This document shows positions 33,924-55,466 of a stretch of 64,000 bases of DNA, one piece after another (positions within the stretch are counted from its first letter, which is position 1; the number at the start of each line of letters is the position of its first letter). The DNA is from an uncultured Tenacibaculum sp. (GTDB lineage Bacteria; Bacteroidota; Bacteroidia; Flavobacteriales; Flavobacteriaceae): the NCBI GenBank assembly GCA_937922085.1, contig CAKZVD010000028.1:3542-67541 (forward strand). The letters run 5' to 3'. The position numbers were made by a program, and so were the translations under genes. The notes beneath the pieces are model-generated. The model saw only the letters and a program-made list of their open reading frames with translations. It was not told where the DNA came from and ran no database searches.

Positions 33924-34811
33924 ATGAAAGCAAAAAATATAACAGATTTTGTAGGAAATACACCTTTAGTAGAAGCTACAAGTATCATAAATAAAGAAAA
34001 AGTACGCTTATTTTTAAAATTAGAAGGACATAACCCTGGAGGAAGTGTAAAAGATAGGGCAGCCTATTTTATGATTTCTGAAGCTTTAAAAAAGAATAAT
34101 ATAAAAAAGGGAGATACTTTAGTAGAAGCAACAAGCGGAAACACAGGTATTGCATTAGCGTTAATGGCTAAAGTATTAGGGTTGAATATGGTTTTGGTAA
34201 TGCCAGAACATGCTACTATAGAAAGAGTGAAAACAATGCGTGCTTATGGAGCTGAGGTTATTTTAACACCAACAGCTGATGGAATGGAAGGTGCGATAGA
34301 TCATGCATTAGAGTTAAAATATAAAAAAGGATATTTTAGATTAAATCAGTTTGATAATTTAGATAATCCTAAAGCACATTATAGTACTACTGGACCCGAA
34401 ATTTGGAGAGATACCGAAGGGCAAATAACACATTTTGTTTCAGCAATGGGTACTACAGGAACTATTACTGGGGTATCAGATTATTTAAAAGAACAGAATA
34501 AAGAGGTTACCATTGTTGGGGTTCAACCAAAAGAAGGTGCAAGAATACCTGGTATTAGAAAATGGCCAGAAGAATATTTACCAGCAATCTTTAAAAGAGA
34601 AAAAATAGATCAGGTTTTAGAAGTAAATCAAGAGGAAGCAAAAGCAATGACGATTCGGTTGGCAAGAGAAGAGGGGATTTTCTCTGGAATGAGTAGTGGA
34701 GGAGCTGTTGCTTCTGCATTAAAATTAGCAGAAACACTTGATGAAGGTATTATTGTAGCTATTATTTGCGATAGAGGAGATCGTTATTTGTCTTCGGATA
34801 TTTTTGTGTAA
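33924..34811 (+). CDS. cysM: Cysteine synthase B
   Basis: NPGGSVKDR, ATSGNTG, IPGIRKWP, CDRGDRYLS. Confidence 0.9.
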   Translation: MKAKNITDFVGNTPLVEATSIINKEKVRLFLKLEGHNPGGSVKDRAAYFMISEALKKNNIKKGDTLVEATSGNTGIALALMAKVLGLNMVLVMPEHATIERVKTMRAYGAEVILTPTADGMEGAIDHALELKYKKGYFRLNQFDNLDNPKAHYSTTGPEIWRDTEGQITHFVSAMGTTGTITGVSDYLKEQNKEVTIVGVQPKEGARIPGIRKWPEEYLPAIFKREKIDQVLEVNQEEAKAMTIRLAREEGIFSGMSSGGAVASALKLAETLDEGIIVAIICDRGDRYLSSDIFV

Positions 34812-34927
34812 ACAAGGCTTTTTATCTTAAAAAGAAACTCTTTTGAAACGGTTTTATTTATTTTTACTGTAAATATAATGGGATAAACGCAATTGTGTTT
34901 ATCCTTACGTTGTAAACAATTGAAATT

Positions 34928-35407
34928 ATGAAATTGAAATTATTCTTTTTATTATCATTAGTCTTTAGTTTAAATATGCATAGTCAAGTTATTGAAGAAA
35001 ATGATACAACTTTCATCAAAGACTATTCTCTATTGAAATCAATCAAGGGAAAATGGAAAAATGTGCACAGTTGCATTGATAATATTGAAGTAGATTGTGA
35101 AAATTTTGAAAAATCATTAAAAAAACAATTAGAGTTAAAAAAAAGTGACACTCTAGGATTAAGAACTCAATTTAATATAATATGCAATAACATGAAAAGG
35201 CATATTATTACAATTACTGATAGTCTTATGATTAGCAGAAATGACACCACTACTTTATATCTAGACAATCAATTAAAAAAAGATATTATTTACACAAAGG
35301 GTATTCAAAATGAATACAAAATAAAAGTTATTAAAATTGATAAGGATTATTTTAGATTACACTCAACTGATAACTTATGGTTAGAATTAAAAAAAATAGA
35401 AGATTAA
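34928..35407 (+). CDS. Cassette gene: hypothetical exported protein
   Basis: Signal peptide; flanked by GTTGTAAAC (34909) and GTTTACAAC (35410). Confidence 0.75.
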   Translation: MKLKLFFLLSLVFSLNMHSQVIEENDTTFIKDYSLLKSIKGKWKNVHSCIDNIEVDCENFEKSLKKQLELKKSDTLGLRTQFNIICNNMKRHIITITDSLMISRNDTTTLYLDNQLKKDIIYTKGIQNEYKIKVIKIDKDYFRLHSTDNLWLELKKIED

Positions 35408-35409
35408 CA

Positions 35410-35547
35410 GTTTACAACAAAGCCTAAAAAACATTGCTTACCGATTTTACCACTTTGAAAAATCAATCGCAAAACCAAAATTCAGGTATATTTATAAACT
35501 AAACGCTAAAATAAACGCAACGATTTCTTAGTTGGAACGTTAGAATT
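35410..35547 (+). repeat. attC-like site, family A
   Basis: AAC-aaagc-CTAAAAAACATTGC...GCAACGATTTCTTAG-ttggaac-GTT; similar to 46319 and 50481. Confidence 0.7.
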
Positions 35548-35659
35548 AATATGAAGTAAACACCAAAATTGAACGTTTTACTAAACAGCAAGTATACTTT
35601 ACTCAATTTGAGTTTTTAAAAGTCAAATCTATAGTTATTTTTGAACTCAAATAAACGAA

Positions 35660-36268
35660 ATGAAAAATCACCTATTATTAATCGGATTCTTAATGTTTAT
35701 TGGGAAATTACTCTCTCAAGAAGTTAAAATTCCAAAGATTGAGTTTAAAAATAAAACGGAGGATTTAAATACCTATATAAATCTACTAAAGATAAAAGAC
35801 GAACAAGCTTTGATAATCAAAATAGGAAGTTCTAGTTATTGGTCTAAAGGACTATATTCCGATTTTCTTGTTTTTGAAAATGATGGAAATGTTTCTTTTT
35901 ATAAATGTTTTTTCCCATTTGATACTAATAAAAAACAGAAAATAAAGAAAGAACGAATTAGAAAATCGAAACGAAAACTTTATTGGAATTTCTTATCCAA
36001 TGCTAATCAAAATAATAGGTTTTCAATAGTAAAAAGTATGCTGAATATAAGATCAAAATCTAATGTAGATGGAACAAGTTCTATGATTTCAGTTTCTGAT
36101 GGACTTAATTACTCACTAGAAATTACTCAAGGAAATAAATATTCTGCATTTTCTACTTATTCCCCACACACCTTTATAAAAGAAAAATTTCCAGATTGGA
36201 AAGAACGGAAAAAATTAGTTGAATTAACAAAAGATATTTACGGTTTAATAGAAAAATACTATTGCTAA
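35660..36268 (+). CDS. Cassette gene: hypothetical exported protein
   Basis: Signal peptide; stop codon lies within ATTGCTAAC. Confidence 0.75.
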   Translation: MKNHLLLIGFLMFIGKLLSQEVKIPKIEFKNKTEDLNTYINLLKIKDEQALIIKIGSSSYWSKGLYSDFLVFENDGNVSFYKCFFPFDTNKKQKIKKERIRKSKRKLYWNFLSNANQNNRFSIVKSMLNIRSKSNVDGTSSMISVSDGLNYSLEITQGNKYSAFSTYSPHTFIKEKFPDWKERKKLVELTKDIYGLIEKYYC

Positions 36269-36273
36269 CAAAG

Positions 36274-36655
36274 GTAACCGTTGCACAACCCTATAATTTA
36301 ACAAAAAACAACTTTAAATACCCCTTTTTAAGAGGCTTGTTTTTTTAGTAATTATAAACAGTTTTTAATTTCGAGAGGCTTAAAAAGTAATATATAAAGC
36401 CTATGAACATCGATTTTATTAAAAACAATGTTCATAGGCTTTAGCCTTACTTTTTATGGTCTTTTTTGTGAATTTTAAATACTTTTTCAAATTATAGGCC
36501 ATAGCAGATACATGTATTACTTTATTTGCCTGTTTAATTCCTAATGTATTTATTTTTCGAAGTCCCATAAACTGGGTTAATGTGCCAAAAACAGGTTCTA
36601 CTGTACTTTGCCGTTTCCCTTTCATATAACAACCTTGTTTACTATGTACTCATTT
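36274..36655 (-). mobile_element. IS1182-family remnant (3' end plus transposase C-terminus)
   Basis: KRQSTVEPVFG...AMAYNLKK; terminus gtaaccgttgcacaac. Confidence 0.8.
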
Positions 36656-36916
36656 ATTTTAACTAAAAAAGTGAGTTAATTTTGTACACTTCTATAAAAG
36701 TTTTATTTGAAAAGTGTACAAAAATTTTATATTGAAAACATTGTGCTACTATTATTATTATTATTTTATAAATTTAAGCTCGAAAAAAGATTAAGAAATA
36801 AGTGATTAAACCTCCTATTCCTTTTTATTTTTAAAAATAAAATATAAACAACATAATGGAGATAAACACAATTGTGTTTAGCCCTTCGTTAGCAAAAATT
36901 TCAAATCACAGCTCAA

Positions 36917-37813
36917 ATGTCAATTATAATTGCTAAGATCGAAGATGACTCTTGTGTATTTAGATCAGATACAAAAGTTTCTATTTTAAATGGAGACGAC
37001 TCAGTTACTGGTGATAACAAGCTACGCTTAAATCCGAATGAGGGCGTTTTAAAAGTTCACATCATTCATCCAGCTATTTGTTTGGCTTTTGCAGGAACAG
37101 TAAACGTTTGTGTAAATATTATTTACGATTTATGCCGCAAACTACCATTAGAACTTAATGAAATATTAACTTTTCTACAAGAGAGCTTAATAGGATATGA
37201 TGATGATTCAGAATTTATCTTAGGTTCTTATTACTTTGAAAAATTAGAATTATATAAAATTGGAAATCAAGGAATAGAAAAAGGAAATTCATTTTGGATT
37301 GGAAATCAAGATGCATTCTCAGAATTCCAGTCATATTACAATAGTGATAATAGAAAAAAATCTTCAAATGACAGATTTCGTGAATCCTTTTATGATTTAA
37401 TTAGATTTTCAAAAATACCCACGATAGGAGACTTTATCATAAGTAGTTATTTTAGGAATAGTCATAAATGCTTTGTTTACAAAGAAGCTTTGATTTCAAA
37501 TAGTGGATATGGGATAATTAAAGCAAAAGCGAATGTACCAACTACTTTATCTGAAGGAACTGTTTTTGAAGGAGCGTTTACTGTTACTAATTTGGTTTCA
37601 GATAGAATTCTGAGACCAGCAGTATGTTTATATTTTCAAAAAGGGCAAATAGCTTATTTATATTTTCCGATTTCAAATTTAGTAAAATCAGCTATTCCGA
37701 TTGTTATAAAAAATATTACCCTAGAAAATCTAAAAGTGGAAGTACATAAACAATATGGAATTAACTTGATTGGATGGTCTTTGAATTTGGGTCACATAAA
37801 AATAGTTAAGTAA
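36917..37813 (+). CDS. Cassette gene: hypothetical, Ntn-hydrolase/proteasome-beta-like N-terminus
   Basis: M-SIIIA...SDTK...K...LAFAG pattern; flanked by GTTAGCAAAA and TTTTACTAAC. Confidence 0.6.
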   Translation: MSIIIAKIEDDSCVFRSDTKVSILNGDDSVTGDNKLRLNPNEGVLKVHIIHPAICLAFAGTVNVCVNIIYDLCRKLPLELNEILTFLQESLIGYDDDSEFILGSYYFEKLELYKIGNQGIEKGNSFWIGNQDAFSEFQSYYNSDNRKKSSNDRFRESFYDLIRFSKIPTIGDFIISSYFRNSHKCFVYKEALISNSGYGIIKAKANVPTTLSEGTVFEGAFTVTNLVSDRILRPAVCLYFQKGQIAYLYFPISNLVKSAIPIVIKNITLENLKVEVHKQYGINLIGWSLNLGHIKIVK

Positions 37814-37854
37814 ATTAATAACTTTATGAATAAAAAAAACTTTTACTAACACCT

Positions 37855-38496
37855 GTAACCGTTGCACAACCCCATAATTTCACAAAAAACAACTTTAAAT
37901 AAGCCTTTTCAAGAGGCTTGTTTTTTTAATAATCGTAAACTGTTTTTAATTTAGAGAGGCTTAGAAAGTAATATATAAAGCCTATGAACATCGATTTTAT
38001 TAAAAATAATGTATTTATGGCTTTAGCCTTACTTTTTATAATCTTTTTTGTGAATTTTAAATATTTTTCAAATTATAGGTCATAGCAGATATATACATCA
38101 CTTTATTTGCCTGCTTAATTCCAATGTGTTTATTTTTCGAAACCTCATAAACTGGATTAATATACCAAAAACAGGTTCTACTGTACTTTGCCGTTAGCCT
38201 TTCATATAACGACCTTGTTTACTATTTATTCGTTTATTATTGCGTTCATATTCTTCTCAGTAATAGGTAACACTAAACTTTTTCTCTTTTGCTGTTTCTT
38301 TATATAAAAAATCTAATTGAAGTATGTCTTTTAATCGTCTGTAAAAATTAGTTACGGGTACATGATCGCTTAAGCGAAAACTATTAAATAACTTCTCTTG
38401 GTATATTTTAACGCCTTGCATAAATAAAAATAAGAAACCTATTAAATCTCAACTCTATTCTAATCTTATTTTTTTGTTAACTTGTGCAACAGTCAC
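37855..38496 (-). mobile_element. Internally deleted IS1182-family element retaining both ends
   Basis: Ends gtaaccgttgcacaa and ttgtgcaacagtcac; transposase N-terminus (MQGVKIYQEKLF from 38421) joined to a frameshifted C-terminus. Confidence 0.8.
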
Positions 38497-38539
38497 ACTG
38501 TATAAAAAACATAGGGAGGGTTATGAGTTCGCACAGGCA

Positions 38540-38926
38540 CTCCAAATAAACAAAAATAATATTACCCAAAACCCCGAAATATATGCACAAAGATAAGCTC
38601 TTATGGAACATCCTTTTGGAACTATGAAAAAATGGGGATTTGATCATATTATGACAAAGAAAACTATAAAAAGGGCTTCTGCTGATGTTGGATTTATCTT
38701 CATTGCCTACAACTTGAAAAGAATCATGAATATCATTGGAATAGAAAAAATTAATAAAAATAATAGTTAGTTTTTCTATTCTTTTTACCCTCAAAAAGGC
38801 TTCTTACAAACATTTAAAATTAAAAACATATTGGTTTACATATATTTTCAATCAACCCCTAAATATTGTTATTATTCTTTTAAATCTGAAATATAAAAAA
38901 GTAAACGTGGGTTTTTAGACAAACTG
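38540..38926 (+). mobile_element. Second, divergent IS1182-family fragment
   Basis: Frameshifted EHPFGT...ADVGFIFIAYNLKRIMNI; probable end gtttttagacaaactg. Confidence 0.7.
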
Positions 38927-39034
38927 ACGTTGTAGCACATTTTGACCCATCTTAGTAAAAACTATTAGATTATGTTTATTTGATAAAGTGTAACACTTTA
39001 TCAAAAGTATTGTCTTTAGTAAAAACTAAACCAA

Positions 39035-40795
39035 ATGAATAATAAATTAGTATATGTACTATTCACAATCAGTATAGTATTATTTTCATGTTCTAACAAT
39101 CCAAAAACTAATTCGGCAATTATAACTGGAAAGGTCAATATCAACTGGTCAAAAACTATTAAATTAAGTAACGGAGCAATTACTCTTACAGATTCCTGGA
39201 TTGATCGAATTAACATAGGAGATTCCATCATTGACCTAAATACTGATGGTACGTTTAAAATAAAATTACCTCTAGAAAAATCTAACTTTTACAGCCTTTC
39301 TCACGAATCAAATGAAATCCAATTATTCCTTTCACCAAATGATTCTCTTCATATCGACTTTAACTCAGAAATCGTGTTTTCTGGCAAGGGTGGAAAACAA
39401 AATAATCATTTAAAATCTTTGAGAGATCAAATTAATTTAAATAGAAAATATATTAATGGAATTGATTTTTATACACAGTCATCTGATGCTGTAAATTCTA
39501 TTTTAGATTCTTTGGAGTTAGTTTATATGAATACACATAAAAAATTTAAAAAAAGTACTCCAGTAAATGAGATTTTTGAACAAAAAATAGTAGCAGATAT
39601 GGCCTATAGAAATAAACTCTATAAAATAAGTCATCCTTCAATATTTAAGAAAAACACGAATAAAAAGCTTCCTATAAAAAAGACTTATTATGAAGATATT
39701 GCTAAAGGAAGTTTTGATAATCCAGAATTATTAAAATCACTCGATTATATATTGTTTTTAGATAGTTATTTAGCTGCACAATCGGCTGGAGAATATAAAT
39801 ATGATATTTATTTTGAAGCTCCAATAGAAAAAATACATCCAAAATATAAAGAGATCCAAAAATTAGAAGCAGATCAAGAAATTAAAAATTATTTATTTAG
39901 TCAGCACCTTCATAAAAGTATGGACGATTACGGTGTTTCATATCTTGAAGACTTAATACCAAAATTTAGAGAAGATTGCAAAAATCCTTTGTTGGTAAAA
40001 CAAATTGAAGATCGTTTTCAAAAAGGTGTTGAGAGAAGAAAAGAAGCAAGTACAATCAAAATCTATAAAAAAATAGGAAATATTGAACTTGAGGCTCATA
40101 TTTTTTATCCTGAAAATTTTAAAGAAAGTGATCAAAGACCCGCTTACTTATTTTTTCATGGTGGTGGTTGGGCAATAGGAATGCCAGAATGGGGATACAA
40201 GAATTGCAAAAAATATAGTTCCAAAGGAATGGTTGCTATTTCGTTTGAGTATCGATTAGTTGATATCCATAATTCCAACATTCAAGATTGCGTTAGAGAT
40301 GCCAAATCTGCGATCTTATGGGTACGAAAACAAGCCAAATCATTAGGTGTAGATCCAAATAAACTTGTCGCAGCAGGATTTTCCGCTGGAGGACATCTGG
40401 CTGCATCTACGGCTATTTTAAAAGGGTATGAAGAAACAAATGATTCTGGAATAAGTTCTATACCAGACGCCATTGTTGTACATTCTGCATCATACAACAC
40501 ACTGAAAAACGAATGGTTTTCAAGGCAATCAGAACAAAACCCTAAATCTATTTCTACATTTCATCAACTAGATAAAAATCTTGTTCCTTCTATCTTTTTC
40601 CATGGAACCAATGATCATTTAGCCCCTATAAATGAGTTTACAGAGTTTAGAGACAAAATGGATGCTCTTGGCAATGATTATGAATATAAAATCTTTAAGA
40701 ATGTTGGTCATTTTTTTAATAACTCTGCAGCACGAAAAACTGTGGATGAAATGACAGAAGCTTTTTTTGTGAAATTAGGATATTTAGAAAAGTAA
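39035..40795 (+). CDS. Cassette gene: lipoprotein with C-terminal alpha/beta-hydrolase (esterase)
   Basis: Lipobox LFSC; HGGGW, GFSAGG, HGTND, GH. Confidence 0.85.
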   Translation: MNNKLVYVLFTISIVLFSCSNNPKTNSAIITGKVNINWSKTIKLSNGAITLTDSWIDRINIGDSIIDLNTDGTFKIKLPLEKSNFYSLSHESNEIQLFLSPNDSLHIDFNSEIVFSGKGGKQNNHLKSLRDQINLNRKYINGIDFYTQSSDAVNSILDSLELVYMNTHKKFKKSTPVNEIFEQKIVADMAYRNKLYKISHPSIFKKNTNKKLPIKKTYYEDIAKGSFDNPELLKSLDYILFLDSYLAAQSAGEYKYDIYFEAPIEKIHPKYKEIQKLEADQEIKNYLFSQHLHKSMDDYGVSYLEDLIPKFREDCKNPLLVKQIEDRFQKGVERRKEASTIKIYKKIGNIELEAHIFYPENFKESDQRPAYLFFHGGGWAIGMPEWGYKNCKKYSSKGMVAISFEYRLVDIHNSNIQDCVRDAKSAILWVRKQAKSLGVDPNKLVAAGFSAGGHLAASTAILKGYEETNDSGISSIPDAIVVHSASYNTLKNEWFSRQSEQNPKSISTFHQLDKNLVPSIFFHGTNDHLAPINEFTEFRDKMDALGNDYEYKIFKNVGHFFNNSAARKTVDEMTEAFFVKLGYLEK

Positions 40796-40823
40796 TGAAT
40801 TTAACTAACGTGCTAGAACAACG

Positions 40824-41295
40824 GTAGCCGTTACACAACCTTATAATTTCACAAAAAATTACTAAAAAATAAGCCTTTTTAAGAGGCTTATTTTTTAGTA
40901 ATTATAAACTGTTTTTAATTTAGAATTCCTTAAAAAGTAATATATAAAGCCTATGAACATCTATTTTATTAAAAACAATGTATTTATAGTCTTAGCCTTA
41001 CTTTTTATGGTCTTTTTTGTGAATTTTAAATACTTTTTCAAATTATAGGCCATAGCAGATACATGCATCACCTTAATCCCTAATGTATTTATTTTTCGAA
41101 GTCCCATAAACTGGGTTAATTTGCCAAAAACAGGTTCTATAGTACTTTGGCGTTTGCCTTTCATATAACGCTCTTGTTTGCTATGTACTTTTTCAGTAAG
41201 CTCTAATTATAAACTGGGTTAATGTGTCAAAAACGGGGTCTACAGTACTTTGGCGTTTGCCTTTCATATAACGCCCTTGTTTACTATGTACTCAT
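40824..41295 (-). mobile_element. IS1182-family remnant with internal tandem duplication
   Basis: KRQSTIEPVFG...AYNLKK; ~41107-41190 repeated at ~41210-41290. Confidence 0.8.
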
Positions 41296-41680
41296 TTATT
41301 TTAACTAAAAAAGAGAGTTAATTTTGTACACCTTTAAAAAAATAGTGATAACGAAGTGTACACTTTTATTTGAAAAGTATACAAAAATTTTAATAAAAAT
41401 ATAGACACATTATCCGTAGTTTGTTTTTTCAAAACATTAAAATAATATAACAAAGTGATACTATTGTATAAAAATTATATAATAAAAACATTGTGCCTCT
41501 ATTATTATTTTATAAATTTAAGCTCGAAAAAAAGATGAAGAAATAAGTGACTAAACCTCCTTTTTCCTTTTTATTTTCTAATATAAAAATTTTAAAACAA
41601 TATAAAAGGTACACTTTATACCATTATTTGGTTGTATAAATGTAATAGTACATTTATATAGTTGTTGTATGTTATTAGAA

Positions 41681-42133
41681 CTATCGTTTCGTCTTTCCTC
41701 TTTCCTGTATATTAGTTGGCCAAAAATCGTGTTCTTTATCTAAAAAAACTATATAATAGACATCATTTTCAACATATCCCGCAACAACTTCTTTACTATT
41801 TGGCTTTATATGAATTACAGCCCAATAAGATGGTTTAACATGTTTTGGCTCGTCAAAATTTGAACATAATGGAAAACCTATCTTAGTATATTGTTTTATT
41901 AACTGTTGCGCTAAAGCATCTGGTGCACTATATTGACTAATTTGTTTCAACCTTTCCATTAATGGACGTAACAGTTTGTAATCTTCCCATTCCTTGATAT
42001 CTTGTCCAAAAGAAACTATATGTTTTTCCCAACTAAAACTTATTTTCCTTTGCTTTGGGCCTTTTGCTTTTCTTTTACCTGGTTTGTTTTCATATTGTTT
42101 ATACCATTCTGTATCATAATTATTTTCACTCAT
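41681..42133 (-). CDS. Putative RelE-like (MAG6450-like) toxin/ribonuclease
   Basis: C-terminal VAGYVENDVYYIVFLDKEHDFWP; start overlaps the ATPase stop. Confidence 0.55.
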   Translation of the reverse strand: MSENNYDTEWYKQYENKPGKRKAKGPKQRKISFSWEKHIVSFGQDIKEWEDYKLLRPLMERLKQISQYSAPDALAQQLIKQYTKIGFPLCSNFDEPKHVKPSYWAVIHIKPNSKEVVAGYVENDVYYIVFLDKEHDFWPTNIQERGKTKR

Positions 42134-43349
42134 ACAAAAAAGATATAAGAGGTTCTACTATATTTATTGACTCAGCTCCACCAAAAGTACTTTCTAAATA
42201 TTTTTTTCTAAAATCAGAAGTGTTTTTTACTACCGAAGTATCGAAACTAGACATTGGATATAACTCTGAAACACCAAACTGGTCTTTATCAGTAAACCAT
42301 ATTTGATCTCTTCTAAATATATCTTTATCTAAAAGTGTCGCATCATGCGCCGTGAAAATGAATTGTGCGTTTTTTTTATTAAATCTATGAAAGAAAGAAA
42401 TAAGTTTTCTTGTTAGATTAGGATGGAACTTAGAGTCAAACTCGTCAATAAACAAGACCTTGCCATACTTAAGTGTATCATAAAGTGCTCCCAAAAAATA
42501 AATTAATTTTCTTGTTCCTTGACTCTCTTCTTTATCAATATCAAAAGGAACAGAATCTATAATAAAATCATTCTCATCATATTTATTGTGGTATGCCAAA
42601 AGCTTATTTTCATTAACTCCTGATTCTACTGAACTAATTTCTAAAAATTTAACTGCTAGAGAAAGCCAATTTTTAAAATTAGGATCTTCTCTTAATAAAA
42701 TAGAAGTAACATTAGAGAAATGTGTATTATCTAGTCCACTAATAATATTAGCATTTTCAAACCAATTAAATACTTGCTTTGATATCTGAGCATTATTCTG
42801 AGCTAAATAACTAAGGAAAAGAACGTTTTTATTAACCTGTGACTTATACTTATTACCTTCCTTAAAGCTTTTATGATTTATCTCAAATTTTGAATTTAAC
42901 CTACTAAAAAGTAAAGTTTCAGTATTAATTTTTCGATAAAGCCATTCTTTTACAATTATTTCACCTAAAATTTCAAAACCATATCTATAAAAAACTCCTT
43001 GCTCAAAAAAAGAAATTTCAAAAAAAGAAGGTTTATTTTCAGTCTCTTGACTTAACTTAAAGTAAAAATCATTCCTTTTTTTATCCTCTTTTTTCTTAAG
43101 TGAATTAGCAAAAGAATTATGAACTAAGTCTTCCATAAAACCAAAAGCTGAAATAAAATTACTTTTACCTCCTCCATTACTACCATAGACAGCTACGGAT
43201 TTCATTAAATTTATATTCTCATTTAGATCAACCAAATTATCATCTAAATGTTCTTTATATGATTTTACAGAAGACATTAAAAGTTTGTTCTCATTTTTAT
43301 ATGAGAGGAAATTTTTAAATTTAAAATCTATTAGCATTTTAAAATACAT
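42126..43349 (-). CDS. AAA_21/RloA-like ABC-type ATPase (start may be 43337)
   Basis: YGSNGGGKS, ESQGT, FIDEFDSKFHP, FTAH, RRDQIWF. Confidence 0.9.
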   Translation of the reverse strand: MYFKMLIDFKFKNFLSYKNENKLLMSSVKSYKEHLDDNLVDLNENINLMKSVAVYGSNGGGKSNFISAFGFMEDLVHNSFANSLKKKEDKKRNDFYFKLSQETENKPSFFEISFFEQGVFYRYGFEILGEIIVKEWLYRKINTETLLFSRLNSKFEINHKSFKEGNKYKSQVNKNVLFLSYLAQNNAQISKQVFNWFENANIISGLDNTHFSNVTSILLREDPNFKNWLSLAVKFLEISSVESGVNENKLLAYHNKYDENDFIIDSVPFDIDKEESQGTRKLIYFLGALYDTLKYGKVLFIDEFDSKFHPNLTRKLISFFHRFNKKNAQFIFTAHDATLLDKDIFRRDQIWFTDKDQFGVSELYPMSSFDTSVVKNTSDFRKKYLESTFGGAESINIVEPLISFLYE

Positions 43350-43356
43350 TTAGTTG

Positions 43357-43364
43357 CAAAAATA
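43357..43364 (-). promoter_or_regulatory. Bacteroidetes -7 element for the inverted cassette
   Basis: TATTTTTG (TAnnTTTG) just upstream of the ATPase start. Confidence 0.55.
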
Positions 43365-43411
43365 CAACAAAAAACACATATTCTGCCAAATAATGGAAGA
43401 AATAAAAAAAC

Positions 43412-43611
43412 AACATACAACAATCTATAAAAAACATAGAGCGGTTTAGGCTTGCCAAAAGGTCACTATTTATTTATAAAGTCGCCAAATATAAAATTTG
43501 GCATTTTCAACAAAAAAGATAAAAGCAAAATATTATATTTGACTAAGTATTAAACTCGAAATGTAGTGCTTATCCTCTGCCCTACGTGTTTTATACTAAA
43601 CGTTAGCTATA
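43412..43611 (+). repeat. attC-like site, family B (~200 bp)
   Basis: AAC-aatc-TATAAAAAACATAGAGCGG...CTGCCCTACGTGTTTTATA-ctaaac-GTT. Confidence 0.7.
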
Positions 43612-43619
43612 ATTAAAAA

Positions 43620-43907
43620 ATGAACACAATATTCTCTACACTGATGATGTCATCTTGGGTTTTAGGAATAATTTTAGTTTTAACATCTAATCCTGTTCGA
43701 ATTATATCTAAGGTTAAAGATTTTGATACAAACATAAATAAACCTTTTTATGGTTTTAAACATATTAGAAAAGCTATTTCTTTAACTTCAGATAATGCGA
43801 TTATTGAAAAATTGAAAAAGAAAATATTAATAAGAAAAATAGGATATTCTTTTTTGATAATAACTCCTGTTTTATTCATTCTTGGGGGAATATTTGATCG
43901 CCAATAA
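43620..43907 (+). CDS. Small 2-TM hypothetical protein
   Basis: 95 aa ORF just after core GTTAGCTATA. Confidence 0.65.
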   Translation: MNTIFSTLMMSSWVLGIILVLTSNPVRIISKVKDFDTNINKPFYGFKHIRKAISLTSDNAIIEKLKKKILIRKIGYSFLIITPVLFILGGIFDRQ

Positions 43908-44029
43908 AAAAGTTATATAAATCTGAATAATGTTCTATTGAAATAATTATAATTGAAAAACTGACCTGAATTTGAATTACTACTTTAATAAATAATAATT
44001 TTATTGTAGCTGAAAAATAATTTATTGTA

Positions 44030-44470
44030 ATGAAAGAGTTAATAGATTTAATAGCTCAAAAACACAGAGTAGATGGAATAAAAATAAATCCTTGCGCCTC
44101 TAACTTTGATATAACTGAATTTGAAAACAAAGTTGGATTTAATTTACCTCAAAATTTTAGAGAATTCTATCTTACCTGTAATGGATTTAGCTGTGAAGAA
44201 GATATTTTTAATATAATGTCTCTTTCAGAAATAACAGACCGATGGGAAAATTATAATGATAATTGGTTTTACTTTTCAGAATATATGATTTATTCAGATA
44301 TGTGGGGCATTAGGATTACTGAAACTGGAGAATATGAAATATTTAATGGAAGTTATCCTAAAAAAACAATTACATCCTCTCTTGAAGAGTTTTTAAAAAG
44401 GTTCTTCAAAGGAAATGTGTTTGACAACGGAGGACTTTATGATTGGCACGAAGAACTTAAAATAAAATAA
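44030..44470 (+). CDS. SMI1/KNR4 family (immunity-type) protein
   Basis: PCASNFDITEFENKVGFNLPQNFREFYLTCNG; SLEEFL. Confidence 0.85.
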   Translation: MKELIDLIAQKHRVDGIKINPCASNFDITEFENKVGFNLPQNFREFYLTCNGFSCEEDIFNIMSLSEITDRWENYNDNWFYFSEYMIYSDMWGIRITETGEYEIFNGSYPKKTITSSLEEFLKRFFKGNVFDNGGLYDWHEELKIK

Positions 44471-44471
44471 C

Positions 44472-44669
44472 TATAGCTAAGACTATATAAAAAGCATAGG
44501 ACGGTTAAGTGTTGTATTGAAAATGTTTTGTTTTTTTGCTGGGTTGTCAAATATAAAATTTGCATTTAAACTAAAATTAAAAACAAAATATTTATATTTA
44601 GCTAAGTGTTAAATCCGAAGTATAGTGCTTATCAACTGCCTTACTTTTTATATACTAAACATTAACTAC
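44472..44669 (+). repeat. attC-like site, family B (degenerate ends)
   Basis: Shares caaatataaaattt, caaaatatt..atattt.ctaagt and tagtgcttatc..ctgcc with 43412. Confidence 0.7.
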
Positions 44670-44679
44670 AATAAAACTC

Positions 44680-45504
44680 ATGATTCCGAAAATTAGTAAG
44701 TTCTACTATTATTTTTATTCAGAAAACCCTCACGCTCTAATACAGTTAATTGGTGATGCAACTGAGTACCATTCAGACTACTCTATTTCAAAGTCAAAGC
44801 AAGAAATGTTTCAAAAGCATCAGTTGTATTGTCAATTATTAAACACAATCGAATTTACACTTGAAAGTTACGGTTACATTAATTTTTTCTCAGAATACGA
44901 AGACTTAGTAGGTGAATTGCCATCTCTTTGTGAATTACTTGAAGAATTTGGGCATTTAGATGTAGTAGAAAACATAAATCAAGCAACGAATTTTTATGAA
45001 AAATATTCGAATCAATTTGAATCTTTACAAAACACGTCGTTGGAACATGATGAAATAGATGCTATTTACGACAAGTTAGATTCAAATTTTGATTCAAAAT
45101 TTGACCTAAATGAACCTATGCTACATCTTTCTAAACAAATAAAAAACACCCCTAATAATTTTTGTTTGGATGAGAACGGTAAGTCTTTTGAAATGGAATT
45201 TACTGGACAACTAGAAACCTTCTATGCGAATAAAAATCTTCAAAAAAGATACTCATTTCATAAAGGTGAAGTACACGGTGAGTGTTTTGAATTCGATTTT
45301 GATGGAAATAAAGAAAGCCTATACTTTTATAAAAATGAACACTCTTACGAACAACTAAAACAATGGTATAAAAATGGCAACTTAAAATATGAAAAATATG
45401 CAGATGATGTTTATAAATATTGGCATGAAAATGGACAACTCCGTATAGAAAGAAATGGAGAAGTTTTTCAAAAGTGGGATAAAAATGGAAAAAAAATAAA
45501 GTAG
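44680..45504 (+). CDS. DUF4375-like domain plus MORN-variant (YwqK-like) repeats
   Basis: WYKNGNLK, WHENGQLR, WDKNGK repeats. Confidence 0.65.
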   Translation: MIPKISKFYYYFYSENPHALIQLIGDATEYHSDYSISKSKQEMFQKHQLYCQLLNTIEFTLESYGYINFFSEYEDLVGELPSLCELLEEFGHLDVVENINQATNFYEKYSNQFESLQNTSLEHDEIDAIYDKLDSNFDSKFDLNEPMLHLSKQIKNTPNNFCLDENGKSFEMEFTGQLETFYANKNLQKRYSFHKGEVHGECFEFDFDGNKESLYFYKNEHSYEQLKQWYKNGNLKYEKYADDVYKYWHENGQLRIERNGEVFQKWDKNGKKIK

Positions 45505-45556
45505 TTAACACTATGTAAAAAAACATTGAAACGCATTTTACATTAACCGTTGTACT
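45501..45556 (+). repeat. Short attC-like site (56 bp)
   Basis: AAC-act-ATGTAAAA...TTTTACAT-taacc-GTT. Confidence 0.7.
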
Positions 45557-45561
45557 CAATT

Positions 45562-46335
45562 ATGAAAAACCCTTTTTGGAAGATAAAATCTATACTAATA
45601 TTATTATTTATACCGTTTTCCATATTTCTTATATTTATTTCAATTTTACTGATTTTATTTAATGAAAAGGATGGATATCTAGTGAGCTTATTATTAACCT
45701 CATTAGGAATAATATTATTTATTTACTCATTAAGATATGTGATAAAAACCAACAAATCTTTCAAAAATGATTTAATAGTTTTCCTGAATGATGATTCAAG
45801 GTTAATAGAGTTATTTAACTATGAGAAAACAGAATGGAACGTTTTTGCTGAAATTTATTACAAAAAAAGAATCAAGAATTATAAGATAATAATGTTTATT
45901 TTAATTCCTATAATAACATCTTTTATGATTCTTATTTATAAAGAAGATTATAGATTATTTATCTTGTTATCTTTTTTGTTCCTTTCAATATTTACTTTTG
46001 TTTTTCTATTCCTAAGAAAATCTCTAATAGAATTTAAATCTAAACTGTTTGACTTTGAGAACCCTGAGGCTAGAGTAACCACGTCAGGAATTCTAATTAA
46101 CAAGAACTATGTAGTATCCTATAATAATCAGGATGGGTTACTAACAAAATGTACATTCGTAGTATTTATAAATATAAAATGTTTTGAATTTACGATTAGA
46201 AGGGCAAGCGGAAAAGGACATACCTACCAATACTTTAATCTATTGATACCAAAAGAAAGAGAGCACGATTCTATAATGATAGAAAGTAGGATAAATGAAT
46301 ATGCTGTGCCAAAAACTAAGTACAACAAAACCTAA
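45562..46335 (+). CDS. Cassette gene: 4-TM membrane protein
   Basis: Flanked by GTTGTACT and AGTACAAC. Confidence 0.75.
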   Translation: MKNPFWKIKSILILLFIPFSIFLIFISILLILFNEKDGYLVSLLLTSLGIILFIYSLRYVIKTNKSFKNDLIVFLNDDSRLIELFNYEKTEWNVFAEIYYKKRIKNYKIIMFILIPIITSFMILIYKEDYRLFILLSFLFLSIFTFVFLFLRKSLIEFKSKLFDFENPEARVTTSGILINKNYVVSYNNQDGLLTKCTFVVFINIKCFEFTIRRASGKGHTYQYFNLLIPKEREHDSIMIESRINEYAVPKTKYNKT

Positions 46336-46453
46336 AAACATTGCTGGCGGATTTCCCCCTTGGAAAAATATTCGCAAAGTTCCAATGTTCAGGTATTTTT
46401 ACTAAATTAACAACTAAACTAATGCAACGTTTTTTAGCTAAAACGTTAACGAT
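46319..46453 (+). repeat. attC-like site, family A
   Basis: AAC-aaaac-CTAAAAACATTGC...GCAACGTTTTTTAG-ctaaaac-GTT. Confidence 0.75.
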
Positions 46454-46463
46454 CATATAAAAG

Positions 46464-46808
46464 ATGAAAAGATTTAAAACCGAAAAGATGATCCACTTTA
46501 TCTACCAGATGCTTATGTACATGGGTGATGTGACTAGAGACAATATTGTTTCTTTTATGCATGGCGCTGATTTCGGTAAATGGAATGAGTCACATTGGAC
46601 GAAATTGCTAAATGAATTTATCGTAATCAAATATAAAATTGAAGAACGAGCAATGGGTTGACCTTATCAAGTTGAGTTATTAAGTAAACGGGAAGGAATT
46701 GAATGGAATGAAGGTTTTAAGAAACTAATGCTTGAAATGATTAGTAAATCTGAGCAAATACCATTTACTAAGAAAATGCAGAACTGGATTAACGATTTAG
46801 AGAACTGA
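46464..46808 (+). pseudogene. Hypothetical gene interrupted by an in-frame TGA
   Basis: ...RAMG*PYQVELLSKREGIEW...; frame stays open for 48 more codons. Confidence 0.6.
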
Positions 46809-46907
46809 AAATTAAATACGATGTTTAATTCAATTTGTATAATTGAAAAATGGTGAATTACGAATTTAAATTCATTGAAAATAACGATGAATTAACTTGA
46901 TGAAACA

Positions 46908-47135
46908 ATGAGTAGATCGAAACAGAAAACTAAAATTCACGGAAATACAACGGCTAAATCTGAAAAAGAAAACAAGCAAAACGCAAATAGAAAATTTAGA
47001 CGAATTGTTAAACAAAAAGTAAAACTGAATAAAGAGAGTTTACCCGAACTAAGGGAAGTCTCAAATGTTTGGTGTTTTGATAAGGATGGGAAAAGATATA
47101 ATTTGGAAATGACTGAAAAAGATCTTCGAAAATGA
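46908..47135 (+). CDS. Small basic hypothetical protein
   Basis: 75 aa: MSRSKQKT...SEKENKQNANRKFRR...SNVWCFDKDGK. Confidence 0.65.
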   Translation: MSRSKQKTKIHGNTTAKSEKENKQNANRKFRRIVKQKVKLNKESLPELREVSNVWCFDKDGKRYNLEMTEKDLRK

Positions 47136-47140
47136 AACTA

Positions 47141-47299
47141 TACGCTAACACTATATATGTGATGAATCGATTGGTTCGTGTATATTAGGTAAGGTACAAT
47201 GCTTACAGATATAAAGTTAACAAACTTTATATCTGTAAATTATTAGCTAAATTTAGAACTTAAATACGTAACTAATCTTATATAAACACGGTTATAGAC
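47141..47299 (+). repeat. attC-like site with long internal hairpin
   Basis: AAC-acta-TATATGTGAT...ATCTTATATA-aacacg-GTT; internal ttacagatataaagtt/aactttatatctgtaa. Confidence 0.65.
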
Positions 47300-47312
47300 G
47301 ATTAGAACTGAA

Positions 47313-47477
47313 ATGTATTTTAGAAACAAAAGAAACATTTATGGAGTAGATATTGGAACCCCTTTAATATATGCAGGTAATCAACCCCAAAGGCTAATTC
47401 CTTATAATTATTCCGGATTAAAAAGTTTTGAAAAAAAATGTTCTTATAAATATGTTTGTACCAATAACTTGAAATAA
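47313..47477 (+). CDS. 54-aa ORF or decayed gene in a ~290 bp cassette
   Basis: MYFRNKRNIYGVDIGTPLIYAG... between GTTATAG (47291) and CTGTAAC (47571). Confidence 0.35.
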   Translation: MYFRNKRNIYGVDIGTPLIYAGNQPQRLIPYNYSGLKSFEKKCSYKYVCTNNLK

Positions 47478-47570
47478 AAAACAACAAAATTTTACAACTA
47501 TGATAACGGAATAAAACACTTGATAAAAGAAATAAAAACTAAAAGGATAATTAAATACTATTAAAAGAGA

Positions 47571-47625
47571 CTGTAACAATATATAAACTGTATTAAAATG
47601 ACAGTTTAAACAAAACGTTATATCT
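47571..47625 (+). repeat. Short attC-like site (55 bp)
   Basis: AAC-aatata-TAAACTGT...ACAGTTTA-aacaaaac-GTT. Confidence 0.65.
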
Positions 47626-47649
47626 GATTAACGAAAAATCAAGATTGAT

Positions 47650-48372
47650 ATGAATAAAGAATTAGAACTATTGCAATCAGAGATAAATAATAATTGTGAT
47701 GAATTACGTAAAATAGATATCAATAAAATAAATATTATAGCTGATTTTGGCAACGAATCTCATATTGAATTAAAGAACAAAGACAGAGGGTGTAGAATTT
47801 ACCCTTTTTATTTTAGCGAAACTCCAATATATGAGTTCGAATGGGATGACTGTCTTATTTTTCAAACATCAAGAGATGATATTAAAAAACAGGTTGAAAT
47901 AATAAAAAGTTGGATATTAAAGAGAACAATGCCATCAGAGGTACAAATTCAGTTTCCTGAAATAAAACTGAACAAATTGGCAAAATACTATGAGAAGGGA
48001 GAGGGAGTAAAAGGCGAATTCATCGAGAGCTGGAATGAAATTGAAGAAAATAACTATAATTATTTATCTGTCGATCCCGAAGAGTATCATACCAGTAAAG
48101 ACACAATTAGATTAATCAAAGAAATGAGGGAGGAAGGGCTTAATGAATCATTAAGAATAGGTTCTCGATTATCTTGGTTAATTTTATCTCGAGCTAGAAG
48201 ACACATTATAAATGATAACACTCCGCATGTAGGTATATATTTCTTTGGGAATAATCAAATGAAAATATATTCTAATTTGAGTGATGAAACTGAAGAATTT
48301 GAGGTGGAAGTAAAATATGAAGAGCATCTCGAAAGATTTGTAAAAGAATTATTAAAAGAAGAGATAAAATAG
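47650..48372 (+). CDS. Cassette gene: hypothetical acidic protein
   Basis: 240 aa ORF after GTTATATCT. Confidence 0.7.
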   Translation: MNKELELLQSEINNNCDELRKIDINKINIIADFGNESHIELKNKDRGCRIYPFYFSETPIYEFEWDDCLIFQTSRDDIKKQVEIIKSWILKRTMPSEVQIQFPEIKLNKLAKYYEKGEGVKGEFIESWNEIEENNYNYLSVDPEEYHTSKDTIRLIKEMREEGLNESLRIGSRLSWLILSRARRHIINDNTPHVGIYFFGNNQMKIYSNLSDETEEFEVEVKYEEHLERFVKELLKEEIK

Positions 48373-48689
48373 ATAAAAAGGCCATTTTAATCAATTGTAG
48401 AGTTGTGCAACAGCCACAATAACTATAAGTAATGCGGAATTTTGGTGTTATCCGAAGGTAGAAGTGTAAATTAAAGCCTGAAAAAACCTTACTTAGAGTC
48501 TTTATCGTCAAGGATAAAAAAATTAAAATATTTATGTTAGTACCAATCCGAAGTGTATCATTTATCCTAAGTTTTTTTAGATGAAAACAAAAAATAAAAT
48601 ACTATTTTGTTTTTAACAACTAATGAGCAATATTCAAAAGAATAGTGTATAAATTTAACTTTGATTTTAATAATTGATATAAATAAAAA

Positions 48690-49139
48690 ATGAGCTTAGA
48701 AATTGATTTTATGTACCAACCAGAAGTAAGCTTTGATAAAATATATTCTATTGACCTTGGTTTAAATGGATTCAAATTTGATTCTAGAAAAGGATTTGAT
48801 TTAATTTCTACTGGTATTGCTGTAGATGAAATATATGATGAATCTAGATTAATATTTCAACTAGAAAGAGAACTTAAATTAAAATTAACCATCATAAATG
48901 CATGGGAATCTAAAATGTATAATGATTTTATTCCAATAACTGAACTACTACAATCATTAGAATTATTTAAAAGTTCAATACTTAAGAATCCTACTTTTTA
49001 TAAAAATATTGATTATATATGGATAGAATACCCTGACTATTTAAAAATTCAACTATTGAAAGATTTAGAATATTTAATAAGACTGCATAAATACCTATTA
49101 AGTATTCAAATTAAGGAAGTAAAACTAGAAGTAAATTAA
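48690..49139 (+). CDS. Hypothetical protein
   Basis: 149 aa ORF, same orientation as the array. Confidence 0.65.
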   Translation: MSLEIDFMYQPEVSFDKIYSIDLGLNGFKFDSRKGFDLISTGIAVDEIYDESRLIFQLERELKLKLTIINAWESKMYNDFIPITELLQSLELFKSSILKNPTFYKNIDYIWIEYPDYLKIQLLKDLEYLIRLHKYLLSIQIKEVKLEVN

Positions 49140-49276
49140 AATGGTTAAAACAGAATGTATCATCAATTGTTTTTAAAGTATTTTAATTAATTTAGGTATG
49201 ATAAAACACGCAAAAAAACATACAAAACATAAAAACGTGACTAATAATTTAAATTAAACTTGTGTATTTTTACTTC

Positions 49277-49852
49277 ATGAAAAACATCTTCTATTTCTTT
49301 AGTATACTTTTAACTTTTAGTCAACTTAAAGCGCAAGTATCTGTAATAACAAATCAGTTTAGTTCAAACCTAACAAAAAAGGATTTAAATTTTTCAAGTG
49401 ATAGAAAACTGTTTGCTGTAGGGGTAAATGATAAACTTACAGAAAATTATATAGTTGTTTCTAAAAATAAGCGCGGTGCTGAAAATGATATACTCTGTAT
49501 TGATAAATTTACTAGAAAAGGAGACGAGAAATTTATTAAAACATTTACTACTCGTTTTATACATAAAACAAACCTAAGTATTTCTTTTGTTCAAAACAGA
49601 ATGATGTACAAAGACATTGATAAAGATGGAAATATGGAGTTTATTTATATAGTTAAAGAACAAGAAGACGGAATGAAAAGCCCGTTAAATAAAGTTACCG
49701 GACTTATTGTGTATAAAAATAAAGGATATAAATTATGGGTTAATGCTTCAGAAAAATTTGAAACTACACATTTTGACAAAAATTTTAAAGACCTTCCTGA
49801 AAATATTAGTTCCGAATTTTTAACCTTTTGGAATAGTCTCAGAAAAAAATAG
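49277..49852 (+). CDS. Hypothetical exported protein
   Basis: Signal peptide; DIDKDG (Ca-binding-like) motif. Confidence 0.65.
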   Translation: MKNIFYFFSILLTFSQLKAQVSVITNQFSSNLTKKDLNFSSDRKLFAVGVNDKLTENYIVVSKNKRGAENDILCIDKFTRKGDEKFIKTFTTRFIHKTNLSISFVQNRMMYKDIDKDGNMEFIYIVKEQEDGMKSPLNKVTGLIVYKNKGYKLWVNASEKFETTHFDKNFKDLPENISSEFLTFWNSLRKK

Positions 49853-49926
49853 TTTAGTTTGTTAAAAACCATATTAATTAGTTGTTGTATTCGAAATATT
49901 TAACATTGTAAAAAAATTAAAAAAAG

Positions 49927-50499
49927 ATGAAAAAGAAAACTCACTTAAAAATAATATTCACATTATTTATTAGTAATTTTTTGACTGCTCAACATACAGA
50001 AAAATTTAAAAAATTGATTTCTAATTTAAAACTTATTGATACAATAAAAATCAATAAAAAATATAAAAACGGGAATCAAAAAGAGATAGGGAACTATAGC
50101 GTTTATGAATTAAATGATTTTGAGTATGAACAACTTTCTGGAAAACATATTACATATTATAGCAATGGACAAATATTGGAAGAAACTACTTACGATAACT
50201 TTGGGATTGTCTTAAAATGGAAATTGTATGATGGACTAGGTAATTTACAACAAGAACTTAAAACAATAAAAATTGATACAGATAAAGAAAGTTTAGATGA
50301 ACTCTTAAATGATAACAATTCTATTGATATAATAATTGAAGAAAAAAAGTATAAATTTTCAGATAAAATATGTGGTTGGTTTTTAATTAAAGAAGGGCAA
50401 AAAATTAATGGTAAAAAAATTGGGAAATGGAAAAAATATTATCCTAATGGAGAAGTCAAAAAAGTAAAAGAATATAAAGCTTTATACAATAAAACCTAA
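49927..50499 (+). CDS. Exported MORN-variant repeat protein
   Basis: YKNGNQK, YYSNGQI, GKWKKYYPNGEVK. Confidence 0.7.
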   Translation: MKKKTHLKIIFTLFISNFLTAQHTEKFKKLISNLKLIDTIKINKKYKNGNQKEIGNYSVYELNDFEYEQLSGKHITYYSNGQILEETTYDNFGIVLKWKLYDGLGNLQQELKTIKIDTDKESLDELLNDNNSIDIIIEEKKYKFSDKICGWFLIKEGQKINGKKIGKWKKYYPNGEVKKVKEYKALYNKT

Positions 50500-50634
50500 A
50501 AAAATATAGTTTATGGGGCATTTGGAAAATCTTCAAAGAATTCAAATGTTTAGGTGTATTTATAAATTAAAAGCAAAGATTAATAATATGTATAAATCAC
50601 ATTTACTAAGTGTTTAATCGAATATTATTAGTTT

Positions 50635-52415: not shown

Positions 52416-52455
52416 TTCTTTATTATTTTAGATTTACAAAATACATTTTTAGTTT

Positions 52456-52498
52456 AAAAAAACCGTTTAAAGCATTTAATTCTTTAAACAGTTTTTTT
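52456..52498 (-). terminator. Hairpin downstream of the outer-membrane protein gene
   Basis: aaaaaaaccgtttaaag...ctttaaacagttttttt. Confidence 0.55.
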
Positions 52499-52507
52499 AT
52501 AGATTGA

Positions 52508-55416: not shown

Positions 55417-55466
55417 GGAAAGATTTTACTTCTCTTTTCCTGATAACAAACTTTAAAATATCAGGA

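Follow-up and report, generated by a model that had tools for sequence, protein, structure and literature searches.

Here we describe a window of 64,000 nucleotides from an uncultured Tenacibaculum sp. (assembly GCA_937922085.1, contig CAKZVD010000028.1, hereafter C28) and the gene array that it carries. Sequence comparison suggests, with a probability that we put at roughly 85%, that this is a decayed, recombinase-less array of about 12 cassettes, left by an integron-like capture system of the Bacteroidota that likely uses a tyrosine recombinase lacking the IntI insertion to act on a folded bottom strand. Integrons are generally held to need both that insertion and extrahelical bases for recombining a folded strand; here the integron logic has apparently been kept without either, which makes the system a natural test of how single-strand recognition evolves. 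We also lean, with clearly less assurance, towards a broader proposal, namely that the Bacteroidota own a phylum-wide integron whose recombinase lacks the IntI insertion, has a HARP-like domain and reads the folded strand through fixed G·T pairs. The published rAID-1 arrays, 100-kb flavobacterial arrays and tet(X)/erm(F)/aadS/ere(D) resistance clusters would then be its products and 'tpnF' its recombinase, all of it missed by standard integron surveys.

The initial annotation of this DNA had claimed that each unit of the array opens at a GTT core and closes on the reverse complement of its own start, and had listed 11 such GTT/AAC pairs, whose coordinates and match counts we reproduced in full. 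The variable bases do match within a unit and not across a spacer: over positions 4-10, ends agree with their own starts at 62/77 bases and with the next start at 23/70, and shuffled pairings give 29.4 ± 5.4 matches, none of 200,000 shuffles being as high as the true count. The mismatch at position 11 is fixed: all 11 pairs have A at their start. Since the original pairs had been picked by eye, we repeated the test with a covariance model (R1) built from related genomes only (40 sites; one 54-nt site of 41 non-redundant ones was left out). Its six best matches in the window, each on the minus strand, coincide with array spacers (at 46320, 35412, 43415, 45503, 47143 and 47571; E from 1e-9 to 0.098); the remaining 11 of 17 matches have E of 0.97 or worse, and the decayed spacer at 44479 is missed. 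At these six sites the two ends of one site agree at only 1-2 of 7 bases. For five units whose ends are fixed independently, by a model hit or an attI-like position, the true pairing (26/35) is the best of all 120 permutations (mean 14.4), the 41664 head used in this test being a weaker assignment. A fixed-spacing weight matrix recovered only one window site, and minimum-energy folds of decayed sites were often misfolded.

The 11 units thus recovered are joined by a twelfth, 47617-48379, which had been overlooked because its end has decayed. Every unit does start at a GTT core, as had been proposed, but some of these GTTs lack a full site before them. The GTTs at 34909, 36888 and 41664 follow attI-like hairpins, that at 38929 follows the end of an insertion sequence (IS), and that at 49905 has no recognisable upstream site. 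Most array open reading frames (ORFs) lie on the plus strand, with the genes of the 41664 unit on the minus strand. Among 16 array ORFs scanned we found one SMI1/KNR4 protein and one AbiLi-like ATPase, most of the others having no family. The ATPase (PF13304, E 5.8e-34; PADLOC AbiLi, E 1.4e-77) and its family-less 150-aa partner in cassette 5 are likely a defence pair, by homology a candidate anti-phage system.

Cassettes with these boundaries recur elsewhere in other company. Homologues of cassette 11 in two genomes (G078 and G160) share its start GTT and close on their own AAC with perfect ends, next to other neighbours; a homologue in a third (G088) does not share the boundaries. In G150 the first ORF of cassette 6 again starts at this GTT, there behind another site, and in G117 the 75-aa ORF of cassette 9 forms a cassette by itself that closes on the same AAC. 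Altogether, four of 11 homologous loci share boundaries (L057, L059, L062, L063), two are site-only matches, and in five (L058, L060, L061, L064, L065) the gene is present and the boundary is not shared. The array was found at this locus in none of 16 relatives. Cassettes 1-2 have no DNA match among 150 genomes of the genus, where cassette 4 is matched in its hydrolase part only, in 2/150; the window's cassette proteins match none of the relatives' 305 cassette ORFs.

Recombinases linked to such arrays were found in relatives. An open frame of 345-416 aa matching TIGR02249 below its cut-off is present in 16 of 41 genomes, with no match above the cut-off in any of the 41. In the loci read, the recombinase gene, which encodes 345-400 aa in an intact platform, is followed by an attI-like site with its GTT just past the stop and by an array on the same strand, the first unit starting at that GTT with no attC-like arm before it. 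R1 gave 58 matches in 18 of 79 recombinase loci drawn from GTDB, all of them downstream of the gene and 57 on the minus strand. The primary site, at the 3' end of the gene and in this unlike attI1, has two clear homologues in the window: head 1 aligns with what directly follows the stop of the recombinase gene in locus L089 with a score of 70 (shuffle maximum 35.5), and head 2 does so with the score given in Table 1. Head 3 scores 43 in this comparison (shuffle maximum 48.5); the block 41364-41666 that contains it recurs on another contig (C23) at 91%, there before a different cassette. A TAnnTTTG box, which we take to be the Bacteroidota -7 promoter motif, lies past the recombinase stop at 28/69 loci against 3.1 expected.

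In these relatives the arrays reach 126 sites in ~100 kb (G016) and 76 in 128 kb (G024). Unit ends match their own starts at 6/7 bases or better in 341/368 units, compared with 20.6 in shuffled pairings (maximum 36) and 40/389 for the two ends of the same site. Copies of one cassette carry a downstream site at least 85% identical in 1448/1451 pairs and such an upstream site in 554; discordant pairs favour the downstream site by 857 to 0, with 20/22 families in agreement. The alternative arrangement, in which the hairpin lies in front of its gene, was rejected for chromosomal arrays on this downstream-site retention. R1 matches occur in 24/24 genomes of the same genus, in 5/16 from other families of the order and in 48/150 across the phylum. 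Pairing at the shuffled level, a lack of shared boundaries elsewhere and a lack of any linked recombinase, which the initial annotation had named as findings that would speak against a cassette system, were none of them observed.

As a separate observation, 126 of the 341 units hold no ORF of 70 aa. The G016 arrays (L050, L156-L163) include 105 copies, in five families, of cassettes of 314-506 nt whose ORF is short or missing, and G012 (L043) has five identical 432-nt cassettes. These ORF-poor units are possibly non-coding or promoter cassettes.

The linked enzyme reaches 197-217 bits against TIGR02249 in two stretches (cut-off 265) and lacks the IntI insertion, 26 of its residues spanning 69 of IntI4. 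The missing region holds the extrahelical-base contacts K209, Y210, W219, P232, H240 and H241 of IntI4 (PMC3053210), and its absence fits sites without extrahelical bases. The earlier reading as a cassette-capture system is supported, with the amendments that the recombinase is not an integron integrase and the sites are not canonical attC. The best solved relatives are archaeal XerA and IntI4, archaeal XerA being the closest by both sequence and fold. An extra N-terminal domain of 80 aa has no Pfam family; its top structural matches are the N-terminal domains of T4 UvsW (Z 6.6, root-mean-square deviation 2.3 over 68 residues) and of archaeal XPB (Z 6.6, 1.7 over 57), and it matches the HARP domain of SMARCAL1, a junction-binding domain (PMC4666394), with Z 4.2. 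In a tree of 45 proteins (13 from the genus, 26 of the 79 GTDB loci and six references, with long outgroup branches), TpnF falls together with the flavobacterial and rAID-type enzymes in a clade (support 88/90) that excludes IntI1 and XerD, and the same-genus recombinases group with proteins of Lutibacter, Gilvibacter, Christiangramia and other Flavobacteriaceae.

The sites read AAC-N3-16 bp arm ... arm-N6-GTT, with ungapped arms, no bulge and 3/6 spacers in 69 of 83 candidates, which were chosen on Watson-Crick pairs only; of the 83 we kept 74 and dropped nine as non-consensus. The base after AAC is A in 74/74 sites and the base before GTT is C in 73/74; position 11 is A at 74/74 starts and C at 67/74 ends. 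A long outer stem was considered as a unique feature and rejected, since a match over 12 nt is also seen (by eye) in two of three class 1 cassettes. The strongest competing explanation accepts the same cassettes and recombinase and holds that the sites recombine as duplex DNA or extruded cruciforms, in a Xer-like manner, one-strand folding being incidental. An enzyme without the IntI insertion, and closest to archaeal XerA, would suit it; work by Messier and Roy in 2001 reportedly found the insertion to be needed for folded attC. The sites nevertheless differ greatly in sequence yet stay paired (98% of cells paired, and pairing maintained by double changes at 13 of 20 pairs, both figures being partly circular), and their arms stand some 45 to 190 nt apart. 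Among the mismatches in top-strand arms, 166 are A·C or C·A and nine are G·T or T·G, which points to the bottom strand as the fully pairable one. We consider duplex recombination improbable, although more deserving of attention than the explanations that follow.

It is less probable still that the window is an ordinary cluster of attC sites without a nearby integrase (CALIN), made of canonical attC served by a true IntI elsewhere or in another cell. The R''...R' layout and the match of own start to own end are as in class 1 cassettes, and one attC from a Polaribacter phage has been recombined by IntI1 (PMC9892861). Such an origin is opposed by the lack of TIGR02249 matches above cut-off, by class 1 attC having 5/5-6 spacers and a bulged L'' in place of the unbulged 3/6 layout, and by the blindness of R1 to three class 1 attC in L174 (best E 3.7). 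IntegronFinder 2.0 is described as finding one complete integron in Bacteroidetes proper (PMC9024848), to be set against R1 matches in nearly a third of the phylum genomes scanned. The window does resemble CALIN in being a site cluster with no integrase beside it, more degenerate than complete arrays (PMC4889954, PMC9024848), and differs in that its sites appear to form a separate family, CALIN being defined by the IntegronFinder attC model, and that it keeps attI-like heads.

About as remote is the idea that the spacers are terminators, structured RNAs or miniature inverted-repeat transposable elements, with gene order changing through homologous recombination between the repeats or through IS activity. 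The repeats are alike within genomes, IS remnants are common in the window and the boundary sites match no Rfam family. Left unexplained, however, are the complementarity of a unit's end to its own start and not to that of its neighbour, the GTT of the first unit right behind the recombinase, and a site polarity that is obeyed even by reverse-oriented genes. Chance in AT-rich DNA or an assembly artefact, which 27% GC, eye-picked pairs and a 123-contig assembly might invite, can hardly be credited given the independent R1 hits and the boundaries common to other genomes.

Against true integrons, sedentary chromosomal ones included, the comparison is twofold. The platform in the relatives likewise consists of a recombinase, a primary attI-like site and an array in which a cassette is a gene plus a downstream imperfect inverted repeat with AAC...GTT cores; own starts match own ends, the bottom-strand pairing follows R''-L''-L'-R' (seen in the sequence only), a bottom-strand bias is present, reverse-oriented and ORF-less cassettes occur, and the sites are parasitised by group II introns and IS. 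The differences lie in the missing IntI insertion, the extra N-terminal domain, the position of the array at the 3' end of a co-oriented recombinase gene (intI1 is divergent), and the 3/6 spacers with fixed G·T pairs that stand in place of extrahelical bases with a 5/5-6 central spacer. The system appears to work like an integron, yet the features of its recombinase and of its sites place it outside integrons.

The closest published system is rAID-1, described with an XerD-like 5' recombinase, co-directional small genes, intergenic repeats 'reminiscent of integrons', a restriction to Bacteroidales and an immunity cargo (10.1101/471110; PMC12247911). The accessible text of 10.1101/471110, apart from its supplements, describes neither the structure of the sites nor where a cassette begins and ends, and offers no mechanism. 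The same recombinase family heads an array on a B. ovatus plasmid whose genes are of the SMI1/KNR4, Imm26, PoNi and Tdi1 types; its enzyme is 47-50% identical to the relatives' enzymes over the core and 41-42% over the full length, a comparison made with the plasmid enzyme, the rAID-1 threshold being >44% identity to BF9343_RS08045. This array has 45-nt sites with the own-start/own-end match (8-10/10 in six scripted units, with five more by eye). Its starts read ATT and most of its ends AAC, which favours a cut after the first base (G^TT); no other array does so. The earlier statement that circular cassettes opened at G^TT are established is accordingly narrowed: the crossover is bracketed to the GTT, and we infer the circles and the cut. 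The window holds one SMI1/KNR4 cassette and differs from rAID-1 in its flavobacterial host, outside Bacteroidales, in sites of 45-190 nt as opposed to about 45, in its mixed cargo and in the loss of its recombinase; the relatives' arrays further differ in their length. The array's GC content (26.9%) is within the rAID-1 limit of ≤41% with at least two co-directional genes, which says little at a genome GC of 28%.

Members of the family also accompany antibiotic resistance genes. A truncated one is the 'tpnF' that precedes tet(X3) and tet(X5) on plasmids of Acinetobacter, a context already described (PMC7722449); tet(X) there starts at a GTT right behind an attI-like hairpin. Across plasmids of Empedobacter, B. 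thetaiotaomicron and Riemerella, R1 gave 17 matches, of which the 15 with E ≤0.13 were used. Leaving out one backbone-spanning interval of 12, 10/11 units match their own ends at 6/7 bases or better, with 68/77 matching bases in all against 40.2 when shuffled (0/100,000 as high). The genes of these units include tet(X2), estT and aadS as well as erm(F), ere(D) and catB, the last three in reverse orientation, and tet(X) has the same site after it although the neighbour that follows differs in three cases (loci L170, L171 and L197-L199 for the resistance genes as a whole). Single-site BLAST on plasmids gave only four and two records. In Riemerella anatipestifer, aph(3')-IVb has been reported to integrate without homology together with 27 bp upstream and 140 bp downstream, no recombinase being identified in the accessible text (PMC13148043). 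These flanks fit a gene-plus-downstream-site cassette, that is, a gene entering with a short 5' stretch and a 140-bp attC-like 3' hairpin, and nine R1 sites lie between genes on a Riemerella plasmid. The literature covered, which left aside most subscription papers and the rAID motif logos, contained no site-level or mechanistic account of these sites.

We propose that two successive sites would recombine to release the cassette as a circle, whose junction would pair the cassette's end with its own start over ~14 bp, position 11 being a fixed T·G. On the bottom strand this would give a rod of two half-sites separated by a 5x2 central loop, and in either half-site a G·T pair would lie 12 nt away from that loop. 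Such a folded strand would then be joined by the recombinase to a double-stranded attI-like site at G^TT, near the probable promoter marked by the TAnnTTTG box. More speculatively, the weakly HARP-like N-terminal domain would replace the structure-reading role of the IntI insertion. In this genome, IS1182 elements targeting the sites have split them, and one insert contains several attI-headed pieces. Under this scheme rAID-1 gains testable cassette boundaries and a candidate mechanism, homology-independent resistance uptake in Riemerella gains a possible explanation, and tet(X) and other Bacteroidota resistance genes would be placed in a defined cassette system, with R1 as a site model for surveillance. 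The window array itself is a dead example, recording array decay through IS1182 insertion at fixed site positions.

Several results weigh against the capture system as proposed. The covariation figures are partly circular because the sites were picked on arm pairing, and of seven predicted circle junctions in the decayed window four favour the bottom-strand fold and three the top. No circle junction was seen among 15 of 71 joints listed. Most of the recombinase loci (61/79) have no R1 match, many of them stopping soon after the gene, and R1 misses the rAID-type short sites of L172 as well as the tet(X3) flank. Most of the cassette-copy pairs come from a single genome, G016. Own-start matching is poor in the blaOXA unit (1/7) and at the tet(X3) end (10/14). 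The HARP likeness is weak, its best Z of 6.6 lying below 8, and the clade that unites the flavobacterial, rAID-type and TpnF recombinases has no more than the support given above. Finally, a search of the whole genome, which is 67.75% complete, returned C-terminal fragments only and no intact member of the recombinase family.

IS elements have repeatedly used the sites as targets. Ends carrying one IS1182-family motif abut site sequence 4 nt past AAC, against the array direction, in 19/22 matches in the genome (by eye), and 23/23 distinct IS ends in seven other genomes (L177-L195) lie 4 nt past AAC. In those genomes 1.7-kb copies with both ends occur, some with a full IS1182-type transposase. 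The 4-nt flanks agree in only 3/8 two-ended copies, which may reflect recombination between copies. The end of a second IS1182 family (window 38914-38929), found at four other places in the genome (C46, C49, C81, C103), precedes and abuts GTT or, in C49, the site bottom strand, so that the two IS families appear, by the placement of their ends, to target opposite ends of the site. Remnants of group II introns stand reversed at the R'' core on C11 (near 30110), C23 and C115, and at L173:13678-14993 an intron reverse-transcriptase gene is reversed at R''; an IS110 element also interrupts an L173 site. Group IIC-attC introns also sit reversed at R'' (PMC7923331). The first end motif is seen in the window at 36274, 37855-38496, 40824 and 48380-48417, and elsewhere in the genome on C3, C7, C11, C16, C23, C61, C63, C111 and C115.

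The array occupies part of an insert. In 16/16 same-genus genomes fetched, cysM is directly followed by an S-adenosylmethionine (SAM) riboswitch and metH, with no array between them, so 34.8-55.3 kb of the window is an insert. Contigs of sequencing run X1 cover 33500-36330, 44584-48414 and 48391-51500 without differences, X1 being possibly the source of the assembly and hence not independent, and a run X3 contig meets the window at 45547, the 43 nt ahead of that point being unplaced in it; an assembly artefact is unlikely. A search of C28 with PF00589 and TIGR02249 gave no match, so that no integrase stands beside the cluster. PF00589 has eight matches in the genome (XerD-like, phage-type and fragments), and the best TIGR02249 match reaches 80 bits. 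Of the two routes first suggested, we favour loss of the recombinase over action in trans, at the completeness given above. R1 finds 13 sites genome-wide, and further decayed arrays lie on C11, C23 and C115. The features of the array and its flanks are collected in Table 1.

Table 1. Features of the cassette array and its insert (window coordinates)
Feature	Position	Strand	Details
cysM (PALP family)	33924..34811	+	left flank of the insert
attI-like head 1	34872..34911	+	hairpin ending in GTT 34909; no recombinase gene upstream
Cassette 1	34909..35418	+	159-aa ORF, no family match
attC-like site, 120-nt class	35416..35541	-	R1 46.8 bits, E 1.3e-7
Cassette 2	35539..36269	+	202-aa ORF; IS cuts its site 4 nt past AAC
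IS1182-family remnant	36274..36730 (right edge approximate)	-	PF13751, NF033551 below/near cut-off; end motif
attI-like head 2	36852..36890	+	score 57, shuffle maximum 33.5, against L089
Cassette 3	36888..37850	+	298-aa ORF
IS1182-family element, internally deleted, both ends kept	37855..38496	-	within the site of cassette 3; left arm of the site resumes at 38497
Second IS1182-family element, remnant	38520..38928 (left edge approximate)	+	end abuts GTT 38929; NF033551 E 1.8e-5
Cassette 4	38929..40819	+	586-aa protein, C-terminal alpha/beta hydrolase domain
IS1182-family remnant in the site of cassette 4	40824..41300 (right edge approximate)	-	end motif
Probable attI-like head 3, weaker assignment	41636..41666	+	resembles hairpin after recombinase fragments in C49, C81
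Cassette 5	41664..43421	+	reverse-oriented genes: AAA_21 ATPase 42126-43349, 150-aa partner 41681-42133
attC-like site, 190-nt class	43419..43604	-	R1 37.2 bits
Cassette 6	43602..44481	+	95-aa membrane ORF and SMI1/KNR4 (SUKH) immunity-type protein, PF09346 E 1.6e-12
attC-like site, cores decayed (AAG ... ATT)	44479..44663	-	missed by R1; similarity 73% to the 43419 site, 89% to part of a G121 site
Cassette 7	44661..45509	+	274-aa ORF, weak MORN_2 repeat
Short attC-like site, 45 nt	45507..45551	-	R1 24.8 bits, E 0.005; size as in rAID-type sites
Cassette 8	45549..46326	+	membrane protein ORF
attC-like site, 120-nt class	46324..46447	-	R1 56.5 bits, E 1.3e-9
Cassette 9	46445..47149	+	short ORF 46464-46661 (likely broken gene) and 75-aa ORF
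attC-like site, decayed	47147..47293	-	R1 20.1 bits, E 0.047
Cassette 10, decayed	47291..47577	+	54-aa ORF only
Short attC-like site	47575..47619	-	R1 18.6 bits, E 0.098
Cassette 11	47617..48379	+	240-aa ORF, end decayed
IS end (to 48417), then decayed rest of a 190-nt site	48380..48590	.	score 83, shuffle maximum 77.5, against the 43419 site
Two co-oriented ORFs	48690..49852	+	149 and 196 aa, no recognisable cores; likely cassettes whose sites were lost
Cassette 12	49905..50490	+	190-aa MORN_2 protein
Decayed attC-like site, 46324 subfamily	50488..50604	-	score 88, shuffle maximum 62.5
LytTR regulator, histidine kinase, TonB-dependent receptor	50635..54874	-	remainder of the insert, outside the array; missing at the locus in 16/16 relatives
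SAM riboswitch 5' of metH	55301..55418	+	RF00162, 73.2 bits; right flank of the insert

Other parts of the genome hold recombinase remnants that are internally deleted and end in the same attI-like hairpin (C30:7020-7271, C81:3650-3910 and C49:12295-12615). Those on C30 and C81 are near-identical, and all three begin at one short motif; they are possibly a mobile mini-platform. A further recombinase fragment (C16:10130-10225) and an agmatinase-like cassette (10567-11640) adjoin a tRNA-like gene, followed by a site-targeting IS. Related recombinases also occur in genomes labelled Woesearchaeota, Thermodesulfobacterium, Leptospirales and others (L110, L116, L136, L138, L140, L144, L145, L146); R1 found no sites beside those labelled outside Bacteroidota, some of which have an attI-like GTT past the stop. 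A receptor resembling the TonB-dependent receptor of the insert was found within array intervals of two relatives. Within the window, SAM riboswitches at 17471-17592 and 55301-55418 frame genes of sulfur assimilation and methionine synthesis, and the insert parts cysM from the second riboswitch and metH.

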